Assembly: GCA_965219445.1 (NCBI GenBank)
Contig: CBDCNQ010000004.1
Location: 800,001-864,000, forward strand
Length of the DNA: 64,000 nt
DNA from: Longimicrobiales bacterium
GTDB taxonomy: Bacteria; Gemmatimonadota; Gemmatimonadetes; Longimicrobiales; Gaopeijiaceae
Reading direction: 5' to 3'
Of this stretch, positions 53,070 through 60,525 are shown piece after piece. Each line of letters opens with the position of its first letter. Positions within the stretch are counted from its first letter, which is position 1. The notes beneath the pieces were generated by a model that worked only from the letters and a program-made list of their open reading frames with translations, did not search any database and was not told the origin of the DNA. Both the position numbers and the translations under genes were made by a program.

Positions 53070-53160
53070 GATCCCAACTCCGCTCCCTCTCCTCAGCCAC
53101 CCGTCAGGAACCCTCTCGCCTCGCCGAGCTCCGGCCGGGTGGCCGCGCGATCCATTAGAT

Positions 53161-53207
53161 ACACAAAACGAAACGGCCCCCCGAGCCCAAAGCCTAGGAA
53201 GCCGTTT
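53161..53207 (-). terminator. Putative terminator downstream of tRNA-Asn
   Basis: Minus strand AAACGGCTTCC...GGGGCCGTTT followed by CGTTTTGTGT. Confidence 0.55.
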
Positions 53208-53227
53208 GATTCCTACCTTTTCTTCTA

Positions 53228-53300
53228 CTGGGGCGGGTGGGTTCGAACCACCAACCTCCTGGTTAACAGCCAGGCGCTCTGCCGGTTGAGCTACGCCCCA
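53228..53300 (-). tRNA. tRNA-Asn (GTT), CCA not encoded
   Basis: TGGGGCG TAGCTCAACCGGCAGAGC G CCTGG CTGTTAA CCAGG AGGTT GGTGG TTCGAAC CCACC CGCCCCA G; full cloverleaf. Confidence 0.96.
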
Positions 53301-53376
53301 TTTCAGATACTTCTTCCTGCAACTAAGCCACGAACGCCGACCGGCCGCAAGTGCGCCCGGGCGGACAGGGTTGGTT

Positions 53377-53560
53377 TCACCGCGCCTCCCGAAGTTGCCC
53401 GTGGTCCAAAACGACCTGCAAGATAGTCTCGTCGTCGGCCTGTGTGTAGATGTCCTGCACCATGGCATGGCCCTTCCACCCACCTGCCCGCGCCACATCC
53501 TGCACGGGCAGGTGCTTTCGCTCCGTCGCCCATTTGCGGCGGTAGGCGTGCCAGAGGCTC
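53377..53560 (-). pseudogene. Tyrosine recombinase/integrase C-terminal remnant
   Basis: LWHAYRRKWATERKHLPVQDVARAGGWKGHAMVQDIYTQADDET: H-x-x-R, GGW and catalytic Tyr; N-terminal part absent. Confidence 0.8.
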
Positions 53561-53561
53561 T

Positions 53562-53735
53562 GCACGTGCAGGCCTCCACCGGACCTACGTGGGCAAGGTC
53601 GAACGGGGGGAAGCCGCCACGACGGTGGACAGCATCGCAGCACTGTGCTCCGCGATGGGCACGACGCTTTCGGTATTCTTCGAGTCCTTCAGCCGACCCA
53701 TTGGGCTCCGAGGACCGCGCCGCCGCGGTTCCTAG
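53562..53735 (+). pseudogene. XRE-family HTH regulator C-terminal remnant
   Basis: ARAGLHRTYVGKVERGEAATTVDSIAALCSAMGTTLSVFF; first helices and start codon missing. Confidence 0.75.
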
Positions 53736-53884
53736 GGCATGATGGGACAGCAAGCGGCAGGGGGTTGCGGTCGTGGTTCCGTTGTCACACACACCGAATG
53801 CGATACTGCGAGGCCGCTAGTTCTCCACTTTGCCGACGATCACCACGCCTTCCACGAAGACGCGCAGCCTGGGGATCTGGTGGG

Positions 53885-56536
53885 TCAATCCGGCACGACC
53901 TCTCTCAGCATCTCAAAGAAGTTCAGGACGAGGATGTCTTCGTTGGCTTGGCGTCCCGTATTTAATCGGCCAGCGAGCAGGCGCTGATCGTCGGGTGCTA
54001 GCGAAAAAAGCCTGGCTCCGGTCCCGCCGTAGAATCCGGCCGCGGAGGCAAACGATTCCCGTGATTCAACTACGAACTCCGGGTCGGTGCGCACCGTAGC
54101 TATCATCCGGGAGGCATCGCCGGCCACATAGAAGATTTCCCGTTGGTTACTTGCCCAGATGGGCCTGAGTCCCCCTTCGAGGGAGACCGGTACGCGGCCG
54201 CCTGGGCCTGGGAAGGGGCGAACGTAGGCTTCGTGTCTGCCCGACTCATCGGACTGATAGGCCAGCCAGCGCCCATCAGGTGAAAGGGACGGCGCTAACT
54301 CATTGAAGGGAGTTTCCAAAATGGCGACGGATGTGCTGTCGGGGTGTGGCGCTCCGTAAAACAGGTCGTTTCCTCGCCCACCACCGGCACCCTCACGATA
54401 GACGAGCCACCTCCCGTCAGGCGTCCAGACGACGTCCTCCGGAATCCGCCCAGCTTCTTGAGGATTGCGTAGGAGTCGAGCACTTCCGCTTCCGTCCCAT
54501 GCCTGGGCGTACAGTTCCTCACCGAATCGGTAACCGACTTCGCGTCCATCTGGGCTCCAGAACGGGTCAAACATCCCACCTTCGAAGGTCAGCCGAGAAA
54601 AGGCCCCCCCCTGATCCATGTCGTAGATCCAGATATCCATAGTGGAGGAGCCAACGGGGGCGTGCTCCCACGCCACCCTCCTCCCGTCCGGAGAAATGGT
54701 CGGGGCTCGGAAGGCTCCCGTGAGTCGGGGGTCTAGGACTTCCTCTGACCCGTTCCGACTCACCCATACAGGGATTCCCCCGAGGACCTGGCCTCCTCCG
54801 GGGCGGTACACTAAGCTCCCGGTTTCCGAGAGCGAAAAGTAGCTGCCCAAAGCGGGGATCACTGTGATCCCTTCCAGCAGTGTGCGAGAAGGCCCCGTGA
54901 CCTCGAGGCGGCTCAGGTCAAATGGCGCAGCGAAGAGGGTTCCGTCGGCCGATGCGTACACGATGTGCCCTGAATGTGCGTACCTCGCCATCGTGCCCTG
55001 GAACAGCGGCCGGATCTCTCCAGTCTCGAACGACAGAACTGCGATCCCGCTTTCCGCGGCAGACCCAACGCGTCGGGTGAAGAGAATCCCCCTGCCGTTG
55101 GGGAGCGCCTCGGGGTAGGCCGGATTTGAGTTGTCCAAGCCACCATCCGTAACCTCCTCCTGCTCCCCGCCGTTCGCTGACACGCTCCAAATGCCCAGGC
55201 CCGCCTTTACGAAGTAGAGCCTCCCGTCCCGCCCCCAAGCGAGCCCCAAATTCCCCGCCACCGAATCGGTGACAACGGTCAGAGGGGGAGCGCCCGTGAG
55301 CGAGACGGTCGTGAGACCGCCGTTGAGCGTGAACGCGAGGGACGTTCCGTCTGGTGAGAAGCGTGGACTTCGAGCGTTCTCAGTACCGGAAACGGGAGTA
55401 GGTGCGAGTTGGTCTAGCGGTCGCTGCCAGAGTTGATTTTGCGATGGCTGCCCAGCGACAAAAACGATGCGCGATCCGTCGGGAGAGATATCCAGGTTAA
55501 CGCCTCCCCCGGTACCCCTTAGGAGATCCTCTGGTAAATCGAGCGAGAACCGAATGACGGGCTGTGACGGGTCTGGGCGAAGGAGCGACCAGCCGAGGAC
55601 CAGAGTCAAACCGAGGGCCAGAGCGCCCAGTGCCATCGCCACTGGAGTCCATTGACCTCGACCTACTGACGCACCCGCCGCAGCTTCGTCCCCATACCGG
55701 AAGTGCTCATCCTCCAGCGCCCTTACGAACTCCTGGACCGAACCGAACCGATCCGCCGGCAGCTTTTCCAAGGCGCAACGGACTGCTGCATCGACATTCG
55801 GTGGGACCGACGAGCGATGCTCTGTCGCCGAAACTGGCTTGCCCGCGATGATCTTGCCGAGCACAGCCTGAGTGGTCGTCCCTGGATAGGGCGGCTCACC
55901 CACCAGCATCTCATACAGCACCGAGCCCAGCGCGTACGTATCGGTCGATGATCCTACCGGCTGATCTCCGGTCGCCTGCTCAGGACTCATGTAGTAGGGC
56001 GTGCCCAAGCTGAGGCCGGTCTCTGTTAGGCGGTCGCCTCCGCCGGCACCCACAGCCAGGGCGATCCCGAAGTCCGAGACCACGGGCTCCCCGTCCTGGA
56101 TCAGGATATTGGCGGGCTTGATGTCCCGGTGGATGACATTGTGGCGGTGCGCGTAGTCGAGAGCGTTGGCCACGGCTGTAGCAATACCCACAGCCTCATC
56201 CACCGGGAGCTGCTTCTCGCGTTTGATCCTATCCTTAAGAGTCTCGCCTTCCACGTACGGCATCACATAGAAGAGGAAGCTGTCCACTTCGCCAGAATCG
56301 AAGAGCGGCAGAATATGCGGGTGCTGGAGGTTGGCCGTTGTCTTGATCTCAGCTAGGAAACGCTCGGCACCGACCACGGCGGCGAGTTCGGGCTTGAGGA
56401 CTTTCAGCGCGACCTTGCGCTCGTGCTTGAGGTCGTCGGCCAGGTAAACGGTGGCCATGCCGCCCTCGCCCAGCTCACGCTCAATGGCGTAGCGGCCCTC
56501 TAGAGCCTGGTTGAGACGGGCGACGGGATCGGTCAT
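53885..56536 (-). CDS. Ser/Thr protein kinase with TM segment and C-terminal PD40/TolB-like beta-propellers
   Basis: LGEGGMATVY, VALKVL, HRDIKPAN, DFG, GTPYYMSPEQ; repeated SPDG motifs; ATG overlaps the upstream stop (TGATG). Confidence 0.93.
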   Translation of the reverse strand: MTDPVARLNQALEGRYAIERELGEGGMATVYLADDLKHERKVALKVLKPELAAVVGAERFLAEIKTTANLQHPHILPLFDSGEVDSFLFYVMPYVEGETLKDRIKREKQLPVDEAVGIATAVANALDYAHRHNVIHRDIKPANILIQDGEPVVSDFGIALAVGAGGGDRLTETGLSLGTPYYMSPEQATGDQPVGSSTDTYALGSVLYEMLVGEPPYPGTTTQAVLGKIIAGKPVSATEHRSSVPPNVDAAVRCALEKLPADRFGSVQEFVRALEDEHFRYGDEAAAGASVGRGQWTPVAMALGALALGLTLVLGWSLLRPDPSQPVIRFSLDLPEDLLRGTGGGVNLDISPDGSRIVFVAGQPSQNQLWQRPLDQLAPTPVSGTENARSPRFSPDGTSLAFTLNGGLTTVSLTGAPPLTVVTDSVAGNLGLAWGRDGRLYFVKAGLGIWSVSANGGEQEEVTDGGLDNSNPAYPEALPNGRGILFTRRVGSAAESGIAVLSFETGEIRPLFQGTMARYAHSGHIVYASADGTLFAAPFDLSRLEVTGPSRTLLEGITVIPALGSYFSLSETGSLVYRPGGGQVLGGIPVWVSRNGSEEVLDPRLTGAFRAPTISPDGRRVAWEHAPVGSSTMDIWIYDMDQGGAFSRLTFEGGMFDPFWSPDGREVGYRFGEELYAQAWDGSGSARLLRNPQEAGRIPEDVVWTPDGRWLVYREGAGGGRGNDLFYGAPHPDSTSVAILETPFNELAPSLSPDGRWLAYQSDESGRHEAYVRPFPGPGGRVPVSLEGGLRPIWASNQREIFYVAGDASRMIATVRTDPEFVVESRESFASAAGFYGGTGARLFSLAPDDQRLLAGRLNTGRQANEDILVLNFFEMLREVVPD

Positions 56537-59227
56537 CAATTGCCCATCCGCTCGCGAAGCTCCTCGAACCAGTTGGTGACCAGGTGGACTTCGGCGCTCG
56601 CCGCACCCTCATCACCCGTCCGCAACATCACGAATCGTCGATCGTCGGGACTCACGTCGTACATCGCGTGAGCGCTGGCGGTTAGGTAACCATCCATCGG
56701 GAACAGCACCTCTTCTCGCACCGTGGCGAACGTCGGATCTTCAGTGAACTGGACCGCCACCAGTTCGTTGGCTCCGTTCCGGTAGAACAGTTCCCGTCCG
56801 TTGTGTGCGAACACCGGATCAAGCCCCCCATCAGTGGAGACCTGCACCAGGCCTGAGCCAGCATCGGGGGGGGAAGGGACGCACGTAGACCTCATCTCGG
56901 CCCGTATTGTTCGAGACGTAGGCCAGCCAACGATCGTTGGGTGAGAGAGAGATCGACACCTCTCCGAACTCCGTCACCTGCAGCGGCACCGCCACGCTGT
57001 CTACCCCGGGTCGGATGGCGGAGATGTCGCCAAGTTGAAAGGCTCCTTCACGAAAGACCAACCATGTACCATCCGAGGAGTAGCGCGCCTCCCAGATTTG
57101 GGCTTCGGTATGCAGCACCAGTTCAGCCGTGCCGCTCCCGTCCGCACGCTTGGTCCAGACGTCGTAATTCACTCCTGCACGATCCGATAGGAATCTCAGC
57201 GACTCACCGTTCGGCGACCAAGTCGCCCTTTGGTTTATCGTTCCCTCGAACGTGAGCCGTGACAGCGGCCCCGTGGGCAACTGCTTCACCCACAGGTCAA
57301 ACGTTCCCTCAGAGCCCGGTATCGAGATCGCAAGTCGATCCTCATTTGGGGAGAGAGCGAGGCTGGAAAAGTTCGGGGTTCCCTGGGTCCTCCACGCGGG
57401 ATCGATCTCGCGGGCGGTGCCGTCTCTTTCCACCCATACGGGTGTAACCGATTGGTCTGTGCCACCGCCACCTGTGAGGTACAGAAGCGTGCCCGTCTGC
57501 GATACGGCGAACTGCGAGGCACCGCTGCCAAACACGGCCATCAAGGGGAGCAACGTCACCGGCGCTCCCGTCACCTGCAGCGACTCGACATCGAACGGTA
57601 CGCCCATGAGCGCCCCGTCACCGTGTCCGTAGATCAGGTGGCCCGTAGACACGTAGCGCGGCTGATTCCCACTAGGGATAAGCTCGCGGACCTCGCCCGT
57701 CTCAATCTCGAAGATCAAGATGCGCGATACCTGTGCACCACCACCAGTGCCGAATAACACCGCCCTTCCGTTGGGCAGGAGATGCGGTCGGGCGACGCTC
57801 ACCGAATCGGAGTCCAGCAAGACCTGTGGATCGCCTCCCGAGGACCCGACGCGGTAGAGAACACCTCCGTCGTTGTAGACGATGGTCTCGTCAAAGCCCC
57901 AGTGCGGGTAACCGCCGGAAGTCGTAACCGGAAGGGCCGGTCCGCCAATTATCGAAACTTTCGAGATCCCGCCTCCGGCAGGGAAGGAGAAGGCCACCGA
58001 TTGCCCGTCCGGCGAAAAGGTCGGGTCGGCACCCCCCTCCGTATTGGGAAGCTGCCTCCACTCCGGGTCGTTCGCAGTACGCATGTGGATGGAGCCGGAG
58101 GCCTCCGGCACACTCAGAATCGTGCGGCCGTCTGGCGAGATCGCGAGCCTCCATCGGCCACCTTGGCCGAGAATGTCGAGGCCCGTCACTGTCGCCCGCG
58201 TCGGGACACCCGGTTCGGGGGCCGGAGGAGACCGGAGCCAGCCCCAGCCAGCGATCAACGTGAGGACGGCAGCGAGGGCTGCGAACGCCATCGTCAGCCG
58301 ATTCCAGGGACCAGGCATCGTGGCGGGCGTGGCTACCGGCTCCGGGGTCGAGGTCGTTGCGGCTGTCCGAGTCCGCGCCTTGTACGTGAAACTCTCATCG
58401 CCGAGCGCCGCTGCAAACTCCGCCGCGCTCGTGAAGCGGTCGGCGGGCAGCTTCTCCAGAGCCTGAGCCAGTGCCGCAGCCACATTCGGAGCCACAGTTC
58501 TTCGCGCACTCGTGATCGACGGAGCGTCTGTCGTGAGGATCTGGACCAAGACCGCTTGGGCAGTAGGCGCAGCGAACGGAGGCTGCCCGGCGAGCATCTC
58601 GTAGAGCACACACCCCAGCGCGAAGACATCCGACTTCGGGTCCACGTCCCGGTCGCCAGTGGCCTGTTCCGGGCTCATGTAGTGCGGCGTGCCCAAGCTG
58701 AGTCCGGTCTCCGTGATGCGTCCGGCACCGGCCTGAGCGACGGCCAGCGCGATACCGAAGTCAGCGACGAGTGGCTCGCCCTGCTCACTCAGGAGGATGT
58801 TGCCCGGCTTGATGTCGCGGTGGACGACGCCGTTCCCGTGCGCGTAGTCGAGTGCGCCCGCGACCTTCTGCGTGATAGCGACCGAGTCCTTCACACCCAT
58901 TTGCTTTTCACGGTCCAGGCGATCCCTGAGCGATTCTCCTTCAACATAGGGCATCACATAGAACACGACCCCGTCCGCCTCCCCGGAGTCGAAGAGCGGC
59001 AGGATGTGGGGGTGCTGGAGGTTCGCCGTCGTCTTGATCTCGGCTAGAAAACGCTCGGCTCCGACGACGGCGGCTAACTCCGGCTTCAAGACCTTCAGCG
59101 CGACCTTGCGCTCGTGCTTGAGGTCGTCGGCCAGGTAGACGGTGGCCATGCCGCCCTCGCCGAGTTCACGCTCGATCGTGTAGCGGCCTTCTAGGGCCGC
59201 ATTCAGGCGGGCGACGGCATCCGACAT
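56536..59227 (-). pseudogene. Ser/Thr kinase + PD40 paralog with a +1 frameshift in a C8 tract (56866-56873)
   Basis: ORF 56831-59239 ends '..EVYVRPFP|PRCW..'; the homologous tail 'PDAGSGLVQVSTDGG...VTNWFEELR' continues in ORF 56536-56895; C7 would restore the frame. Confidence 0.85.
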
Positions 59228-59325
59228 GGAAGACAACATGCGTCTAAGGCGCAGGGGGCGGCAAGCAGCTACGGTGATGATCGCGGGCGGTAAGGGTCGA
59301 CCGCGCTAGGGACTCACTCCTCGTT

Positions 59326-59349
59326 GGGGTTGGTTTCGGGGTTGGTTTG
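59326..59349. repeat. Tandem 12-bp repeat GGGGTTGGTTT(C/G), also present once at 53368-53378 (candidate integrase arm sites)
   Basis: ggggttggtttc ggggttggtttg; gggttggtttc near the other island end. Confidence 0.7.
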
Positions 59350-59450
59350 GCCCCGTTAGGGCCCCGTTTCGTGGGGCCAGGGCCCGCTAGGGCAACGGGC
59401 AAAATCCAGGCAGCACGCTAACTTCCCGGAATCGGGGGTTTCCAGGCGGG

Positions 59451-59491
59451 GGTTAACAGCCAGGCGCTCTGCCGGTTGAGCTACGCCCCAT
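59451..59491 (-). repeat. att-type direct repeat: 5' half of tRNA-Asn (acceptor 5' strand through the anticodon loop)
   Basis: ggttaacagccaggcgctctgccggttgagctacgccccat is identical to 53261-53301; no T arm follows. Confidence 0.92.
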
Positions 59492-59751
59492 CAACCGTCT
59501 CGATCCCCTCGACGGCCATACGAATCCGAAGGATCGATCCTGCCGATGAGGAACGTCGGGAAGAATCCTACGGAGGAGTCCCCACTCAGGGAGACGGGTC
59601 ATCACGCTGATTTCGCAGCCTACAGTAATTACACGCCCGGGAAAATGGAAGATAGTGTTGCCCTCCCCCCCGGTCGGGGACACCTTCGGGGGCTCGTGCC
59701 CTCCAACCACTTTTCGTTTTCGGTATACGGGGCGCCCGGACCGGAGAGCCA

Positions 59752-60525
59752 ATGAACCGTATCAAGGGAAAAACCGCTGTCGTCACCGGTGCCTCGTCTG
59801 GATTCGGGCAGGCCTGCGCGCGCGCCTTCGCTCAACAGGGCGCGAACCTCGTTCTCCTGGCCAGGAGACAGGACCGCCTCGAGGCTCTCGCTGAAGAGCT
59901 GTCAGAGACTGGCGTCGATGTCATCACCCGCGTCCACGACGTCAGAGACCGAGCGGCTGCTAGTGCCTTCGCGTCGGATCTGACGGGCCGGGGCATCGTA
60001 CCCGACATTCTTCTGAACAATGCGGGTCTCGCACGCGGCTTGGTACCCATCCACGAGGGAGAGATTGACGATTGGGAGGAGATGATCGACACGAACATGA
60101 AGGGTCTTCTCTATCTGACCCGAGCGATTCTTCCCCTCATGGTCGAGCGGGACGAGGGCCACGTCATCAACATCGGGAGCACCGCGGGCCGCTGGGTCTA
60201 CCCTGGGGGCAACGTATACAACGCGACCAAGTTTGCCGTGTACGCGCTGAATGAGGCGATGAACATCGACCTCGTAGGCACTAAGCTCCGAGTTTCGGGC
60301 GTCGACCCCGGTGCCGCCGAGACGGAGTTTTCGAACGTGCGTTTTCATGGCGACGACGATCGTGCCCGGAAGGTCTATGCGGGTTTTACGCCTTTGACGG
60401 CCGAGGACATCGCCGACGTAGTCTGTTATGTCGCCAACGCGCCACCTCACGTGAACGTCCTCCAAGTCGTCATTGAGTGCACGGCTCAGCGATCGGCGGC
60501 GGTCCTCCACCGAGAGGCCACGTGA
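59752..60525 (+). CDS. SDR family NADP-dependent oxidoreductase (YdfG-like)
   Basis: TGASSGFG, LARRQDRL, NNAGLARG, YNATKFAV, ETEFSNVRFHGD. Confidence 0.92.
   Translation: MNRIKGKTAVVTGASSGFGQACARAFAQQGANLVLLARRQDRLEALAEELSETGVDVITRVHDVRDRAAASAFASDLTGRGIVPDILLNNAGLARGLVPIHEGEIDDWEEMIDTNMKGLLYLTRAILPLMVERDEGHVINIGSTAGRWVYPGGNVYNATKFAVYALNEAMNIDLVGTKLRVSGVDPGAAETEFSNVRFHGDDDRARKVYAGFTPLTAEDIADVVCYVANAPPHVNVLQVVIECTAQRSAAVLHREAT

Follow-up and report, generated by a model that had tools for sequence, protein, structure and literature searches.

Organization of the tRNA-Asn locus

The window, i.e. the whole stretch of DNA analysed here, comprises 64,000 nucleotides of a Longimicrobiales genome. 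Hereafter, G000 denotes the window's own genome, other G numbers the genomes of relatives, and L numbers individual loci. In the window, positions 53261-53301 recur at 59451-59491 as a direct repeat with 41 of 41 identical positions. The sole tRNA called there by ARAGORN and Rfam is a tRNA-Asn(GTT) on the minus strand (53228-53300), and the repeat comprises 1 nt upstream of this gene followed by its positions 1-40, thus running through the anticodon loop (32-38) and 2 nt into the stem. An earlier note, made from the letters alone, had reported this exact repeat from the tRNA 5' end to the anticodon loop, and the coordinates bear it out. They also confirm the order that it gave for the minus strand, namely the tRNA 5' half, an island of 6.19 kb (6,190 bp) and the intact tRNA-Asn. 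The repeat copies flank two kinase-TM-PD40 genes, an HTH_3 stub and what is left of a tyrosine recombinase gene, its tail. The features are as follows, in minus-strand order.

59492..59700, minus strand: native upstream flank of tRNA-Asn, now stranded ahead of the 5' fragment (77% identity to the G005 sequence preceding its intact tRNA-Asn)
59451..59491, minus strand: displaced 5' half of tRNA-Asn, left junction (repeat match and tRNA coordinates)
59453-59459, minus strand: putative 7-bp crossover overlap, corresponding to the anticodon loop (from fragment ends in relatives)
59327..59450, minus strand: element arm in which a 10-bp direct repeat occurs twice, at 59327-59336 and 59339-59348 (homologous arm with the same repeats in G061)
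56536..59239, minus strand: Ser/Thr kinase-TM-PD40 propeller, paralog 1 (Pfam Pkinase and PD40; frameshifted as assembled)
53885..56539, minus strand: Ser/Thr kinase-TM-PD40 propeller, paralog 2, 884 aa (Pfam Pkinase and PD40; 48% identical to paralog 1)
53817..53891, minus strand: short fragment of a repeated small-protein family (also in the tRNA-Ala island, see below; very high contig depth in this bin)
53559..53735, plus strand: C-terminal remnant of an Xre/HTH_3 regulator, joined by deletion to the integrase tail (Pfam HTH_3, E 8e-6)
53377..53577, minus strand: integrase tail, the final ~65 codons of a tyrosine recombinase gene, with the catalytic Tyr codon at 53448 (PF00589, E 0.018; 60% identity to a longer paralog)
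53420..53448, minus strand: candidate replacement promoter in the tail, TACACA (53448-53443), 17 bp, TATCTT (53425-53420) (family survey and native hexamers)
53368..53377, minus strand: arm repeat in one copy, at the integrase stop (two copies in G061)
53228..53301, minus strand: restored intact tRNA-Asn(GTT), right junction (ARAGORN and Rfam)
53160..53227, minus strand: terminator-like hairpin (53194-53175), similar to the arm of a different, 3'-type element (alignment with downstream arms of relatives)

The stranded native flank is divergent from an SDR gene at 59752. Neither GC content nor GC skew marks off the island in the window, and an Rfam search of the window returned nothing besides the tRNA. 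The integrase tail, whose stop codon lies 76 nt ahead of tRNA-Asn, falls under the cut-off for PF00589, and its longer relatives match XerD-type models weakly. Among named records, its closest homologues belong to Longimicrobiales and Gemmatimonadota metagenome-assembled genomes; no match was found among 50,697 phage records, and viral contigs yielded 9 loci of the family. With its integrase truncated, the island is not an autonomous mobile element.

Insertion history in related genomes

The note had proposed to look in relatives for an empty site with an intact tRNA-Asn. Such a gene adjoins the SDR gene in 2 of the 24 SDR loci scanned (G005 and G019) and likewise in G084, which provides the empty site of the Islander scheme. 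The upstream flank in G005 is 77% identical to window positions 59451-59651. In G061, which belongs to a different genus, one contig harbours the SDR gene, the 5' half and a homologous arm, and another the integrase tail, the arm repeats and an intact tRNA. In G004, a 5' fragment is found behind a homologous flank.

Across relatives, the 5' fragments of tRNA-Asn end at positions 38-40 and the 3' fragments mostly start at position 32. We therefore place the crossover overlap, tentatively, on the 7-nt anticodon loop; at the sequence level, the 5' and 3' fragments overlap within this loop, as in the anticodon-loop class of sites. Three of the six copies of the 10-mer in the whole genome (4.56 Mb) lie in the island, two at its left end and one at the integrase stop. 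These repeats probably represent arm-type integrase sites. As in the Islander definition of a 5'-fragment island, the intact tRNA has a co-oriented fragment upstream, at a spacing, 6,190 bp, within 2-200 kb; of the tyrosine integrase gene that the definition places in the interval, the island has a tail below the PF00589 cut-off.

Judged from these sequence comparisons, the island is the decayed remnant of a tyrosine-integrase element and belongs to a known minority class in which the tRNA 5' half is duplicated. The relatives thus support the main reading of the earlier note, that an integrase made the island, carried the 5' half, crossed over in the anticodon loop and severed the tRNA from its native upstream region. 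The 5'-half element that the note described is real, but its novelty was overstated, 5'-fragment islands being already a known class.

It is extremely improbable that the arrangement reflects a misassembly, or a tandem tRNA duplication that decayed without an integrase. The contigs of sequencing runs do break within the 41-bp repeat, and only one listed record passes the 31-letter bridging rule at a junction, which the note had wanted spanned. On the other hand, contigs from three studies match the sides of the junctions with 0-4 differences, G061 has the same junction arms and integrase tail in another genus, arm repeats are present at both ends, and empty sites exist. Of the 93 joints, the 15 listed include no contig that links the two junctions as in a circle, and the 41-bp repeat is longer than contigs can bridge.

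It is also very unlikely that the intact tRNA-Asn is a complete element-borne gene, with a split host copy, as in tRNA-dependent lysogeny. In favour of this model, the genome has another tRNA-Asn besides this one, and the DNA downstream of the gene is similar to element arms; however, the entire 5' half is duplicated rather than a ~10-bp core, no tRNA-Asn 3' half was found downstream on the contig, and the gene is conserved beside the SDR gene in the empty-site relatives. Positions 53160-53227 align with downstream arms in G128, G061, G084 and G111, and with G005 over the first ~9 nt only. Because the downstream flank resembles the arm of a 3'-type element, both halves of the island tRNA-Asn gene may be element-derived.

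Kinase genes of the island

The start of paralog 2 overlaps the stop of paralog 1. The frameshift in paralog 1 lies in a run of 8 G (56866-56873), and one G fewer restores a single open frame; contigs with 7 G were found in 3 of 4 runs, and in the remaining run one contig matches the window exactly. The note's description of two full-length kinase-PD40 cargo genes thus applies to paralog 2, but not to paralog 1 as assembled. Among the run contigs the G run is 8, 7 or 6 long, which may reflect slippage, strain differences or paralogs.

The genome encodes 31 kinase-domain matches, 18 of them full length. Six of the 31 lie within 5 kb of a tRNA fragment, versus 1.4 expected (p 0.0015, one of 24 uncorrected tests, the locus itself being counted). 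For full-length kinases near island marks, the best result was 3 of 18 (p 0.049), and the other seven tests were not significant. Kinase starts occur in 8 of 112 integrase loci, i.e. 27 per Mb, versus 9 per Mb in the own genome and 0 of 29 SDR loci; one G025 locus is included both in this SDR control and in the tRNA scan of SDR loci, and enters into no further result. A kinase start is found directly behind the homologous left arm in G007, and a tandem kinase pair upstream of a tail of the island's orientation (class A, see below) in G071. Kinases thus recur in integrase islands, in many cases as truncated starts. Relatives also have tandem pairs elsewhere, as well as numerous paralogs, and in five relatives we detected no close orthologue of either kinase (best 61% and 52% identity). 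Carriage of kinases by these elements is plausible. The note's further suggestion, that elements help to spread the kinase family, receives only modest support: full-length kinases are mostly not significantly near island marks, and tandem pairs occur elsewhere.

Orientation and targets of the integrase family

Our survey of the family comprises 211 distinct integrase tails, drawn from two genome searches (121 and 201 genomes), from 80 of 533 metagenome hits, from 9 viral and 4 genome contigs, and from tRNA loci and the own genome. Tails located upstream of a co-oriented tRNA or tRNA 5' half were assigned to class A, and those converging on a tRNA 3' end to class B. The collection, which is biased towards relatives of the A-type query and contains a few doubtful A assignments, comprises 86 A, 55 B and 54 tails with no tRNA, and 16 short or other sequences. 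The A tails span 17 tRNA types. The tRNA-Asn of the island type is targeted in both orientations, and several tRNAs are flanked by tails on both sides. Trees were built by a quick method and with FastTree from 113 columns; many of their forks are unsettled, and on this weakly resolved topology the orientation switches at least 10 times. This Gemmatimonadota family enters anticodon loops in either orientation.

The note had proposed to test whether integrase homologues end just upstream of tRNA genes with 5'-half duplications. The first part holds for many tRNA genes, but the duplication was found in only 2 of 9 A loci in one set (G118 and G077) and in 0 of 14 in another; matching 5' fragments are otherwise present for the island tRNA-Asn and for a tRNA-Ala in the own genome (7.5 kb). 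In the set with 2 of 9, a 3' fragment was found for none of the 6 B loci.

Several additional arrangements were observed. The loci L047, L048, L049 and L247, whose integrases look intact and are not followed by a tRNA, group together in a well-supported subclade, which suggests a non-tRNA target. In L152, L166, L211 and L236, the integrase tail is followed only by a tRNA 5' half and a foreign arm; these loci might be tandem 5'-type insertions or excised circles. A distant integrase subfamily is also present in the own genome in ~18 copies; some of these face 3' pieces of tRNA-Val, and many lie away from any tRNA. In addition, the genome has many paired inverted repeats of ~23 bp, 300-370 bp apart.

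A candidate promoter in the integrase tail

The note had argued that the severed tRNA must be supplied with a new promoter. A candidate is indeed present inside the integrase tail, but the necessity is less strict than claimed: a second tRNA-Asn with its own TTGACA-type promoter is found elsewhere in the genome, and the island tRNA-Asn is therefore probably not essential. The candidate lies ~120 nt upstream of tRNA-Asn; counted from the first base of the catalytic Tyr codon, its -10-like hexamer begins 23 bp downstream. At this position, 65 of 86 A tails carry TAnnnT, versus 1 of 55 B tails and 2 of 54 tails without tRNA; 21 A tails lack it. The Thr codon at the site is ACT in 65/82 A, 2/31 B and 4/33 no-tRNA tails (background 10-14%), and the Leu codon is TTR in 52/78, 2/32 and 3/27, respectively (background 5-13%). 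The difference between A tails and the others thus appears to be largely synonymous.

When the 141 indel-free tails, in which silent sites are saturated (identity 0.34), are clustered at 85% identity, the silent-site T is found in 30 of 44 A tails, the top value of 37 columns (others 0-0.42), and in 3 of 43 non-A tails. On the tree, an independent-pairs test did not reach significance, with only 2-7 supported pairs and a median p of 0.6-1. We also searched for the T-form pattern irrespective of context, which yielded 68 matches in 34 of 201 genomes. Thirty of them were inspected and gave 28 A, 0 B, 1 without tRNA and 1 short, and all 18 non-T matches gave 7 A, 5 B, 5 without tRNA and 1 short; these loci overlap the survey set, and the search demands the Tyr segment, making it blind to remnants devoid of it. 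In a phylum-wide search, 15 of 301 genomes had matches, and 11 of 11 matches in other families sit before a co-oriented tRNA or its 5' part; one match in G005 has no tRNA. In many remnants the arms and the upstream codons are gone, and the tRNA starts 10-27 nt past the hexamer, never nearer.

Native tRNA promoters of the own genome use TATCTT and TACCTT, TATCTT preceding the native tRNA-Leu(TAG), and the TATCTT of the tail thus resembles native sigma70-type -10 boxes. The -35 candidate TACACA matches the consensus at 4 of 6 positions, under the scan threshold, and most other tails have 2-3 of 6. A consensus promoter scan was blank at both junctions and did not locate the native promoter. By eye, a GGCTTA-like motif is discernible ~25 nt before the tRNA in several A spacers. 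The tail probably has sigma70-type promoter activity.

Tails before tRNA genes in the own genome

All six tails of the own genome are located 56-169 nt before a co-oriented tRNA, namely Arg(CCT), Asn, Ile(GAT), Thr(TGT), Val(TAC) and Ala(TGC), and five of them are in the T form. Except for Asn, these tRNAs are single-copy in the assembly, which is 92% complete. The tRNA-Ala(TGC) locus is a second 5'-type island of 7.5 kb (G000:C4:297871-305460, L035); it holds an integrase tail and three IS elements, and arm repeats mark both of its ends. A 5' half of tRNA-Pro(TGG) is found 65.7 kb upstream of the intact gene (G000:C2:204119-269920; L036 and L037), with a short repeat common to both ends and no tail of the same integrase family; it possibly represents a second 5'-type integrase lineage. 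The genome also has an array of 17 tRNA genes in 2.4 kb (G000:C3:31920-34298).

Proposed mechanism

We consider it likely that the locus results from an insertion in reversed orientation at the anticodon loop followed by decay, that the tRNA is now transcribed from the integrase-tail promoter, and that the tail was retained for this reason. In this account, a tyrosine-integrase element recombined in reversed orientation at the 7-nt anticodon loop of tRNA-Asn. Because its attP, from the integrase stop to the crossover, included the tRNA 5' half, the gene was rebuilt downstream of the element, leaving behind the native 5' half and upstream region, as the comparison with relatives shows. The element has since decayed to two kinase genes, an HTH stub and an integrase tail. 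The restored tRNA would then be transcribed from a sigma70-type promoter written in the last codons of the integrase. The pattern of remnants suggests that the tail is spared when the remaining element is lost, owing to the dependence of the tRNA on this piece.

Alternatively, the island may be real and its tRNA made by read-through, from the kinase operon here and from the integrase promoter in intact elements, TAnnnT being a protein-binding site or an inherited quirk. The island genes all point towards the tRNA, no terminator was found on the tRNA strand between 53301 and 53900, the -35 is weak, and pTN3-type elements are described as using the integrase promoter (PMC8371274); the independent-pairs test, moreover, was not significant. 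Nevertheless, we deem this explanation rather unlikely, given that close B-type relatives have the same arms without the T, that minimal remnants retain the hexamer piece within unrelated DNA, and that the tail hexamers are identical to native tRNA -10 boxes.

Returning to the tail promoter, we are somewhat inclined, with less assurance, to extend it to the family: its members would repeatedly flip orientation and encode a tRNA promoter in synonymous codons after the catalytic Tyr, and hosts would keep the tails for good, as promoters of tRNAs present in one copy (in the own genome Ile, Ala, Val, Thr and Arg). The interest lies in a family-wide, orientation-linked promoter signal in the integrase tail together with its apparent retention by hosts. 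Promoter loss, an exception elsewhere, looks common in this one family, and its likely solution is a hexamer testable by two synonymous changes. If true, the proposal would account for integrase stubs lasting ahead of tRNA genes and would represent a case of domestication of bacterial mobile elements, with paired integrases aimed at one tRNA in opposite directions and part of the core translation machinery run by mobile-element fossils.

Comparison with known systems

The following comparisons are based on excerpts of the cited reports. In the Islander collection, 159 of 3,919 tDNA islands are of the 5'-fragment type and, as here, combine an intact tRNA with a co-oriented upstream 5' fragment, the island between them and an anticodon-centred site (PMC4383910). 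In our biased sample, by contrast, the upstream arrangement accounts for 86 of 141 tRNA-linked tails; the excerpted Islander account does not mention promoters (PMC4383910).

The pTN3-like archaeal integrases use the tRNA 5' half as attB, with a 41-bp shared stretch, and the restored tRNA is parted from its own promoter (PMC8371274, PMC5495485), as here. However, their integrase gene is split by the att site, and transcription of the tRNA is said to start from the promoter of the integrase (PMC8371274, PMC5495485), whereas here the gene ends before the att site and the putative promoter is internal, in C-terminal codons. The long open integrase frames of relatives likewise lie wholly on one side, unlike the split integrases of pTN3 and SSV. 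Use of an integrase promoter by a tRNA is described as occurring 'seldomly' in bacteria (PMC8371274).

The Klebsiella arg2 5'-end islands also involve an integrase clade inserting upstream of a tRNA, and islands on both sides of one tRNA, but with one tRNA target and a D-loop site, as opposed to 17 tRNA types and the anticodon loop; the excerpts describe no promoter mechanism (bioRxiv 2020.11.02.365908). Elements targeting dusA or prfC similarly provide their target gene with a new 5' end and a promoter, as shown with a reporter for dusA, but these targets are protein-coding and, in the excerpts, the promoter is not placed inside the integrase reading frame (PMC8409611). In tRNA-dependent lysogeny, tRNA function also comes to rely on element DNA, but through a short core, a split host tRNA and a complete phage tRNA (PMC10865867), whereas here half of the tRNA is duplicated over 41 bp, the gene is rebuilt and the contig has no downstream 3' half.

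According to a review, bacterial tRNA genes restored by integration retain, 'with very few exceptions', the promoter that they had before (PMC8371274, citing Williams 2002). Our literature searches found neither a published tRNA promoter within integrase C-terminal codons nor work on this Gemmatimonadota family, and the exceptions of Williams 2002 may include the mechanism. The 5'-type tRNA island is thus a known class, and what seems to be new is the location of the putative replacement promoter.
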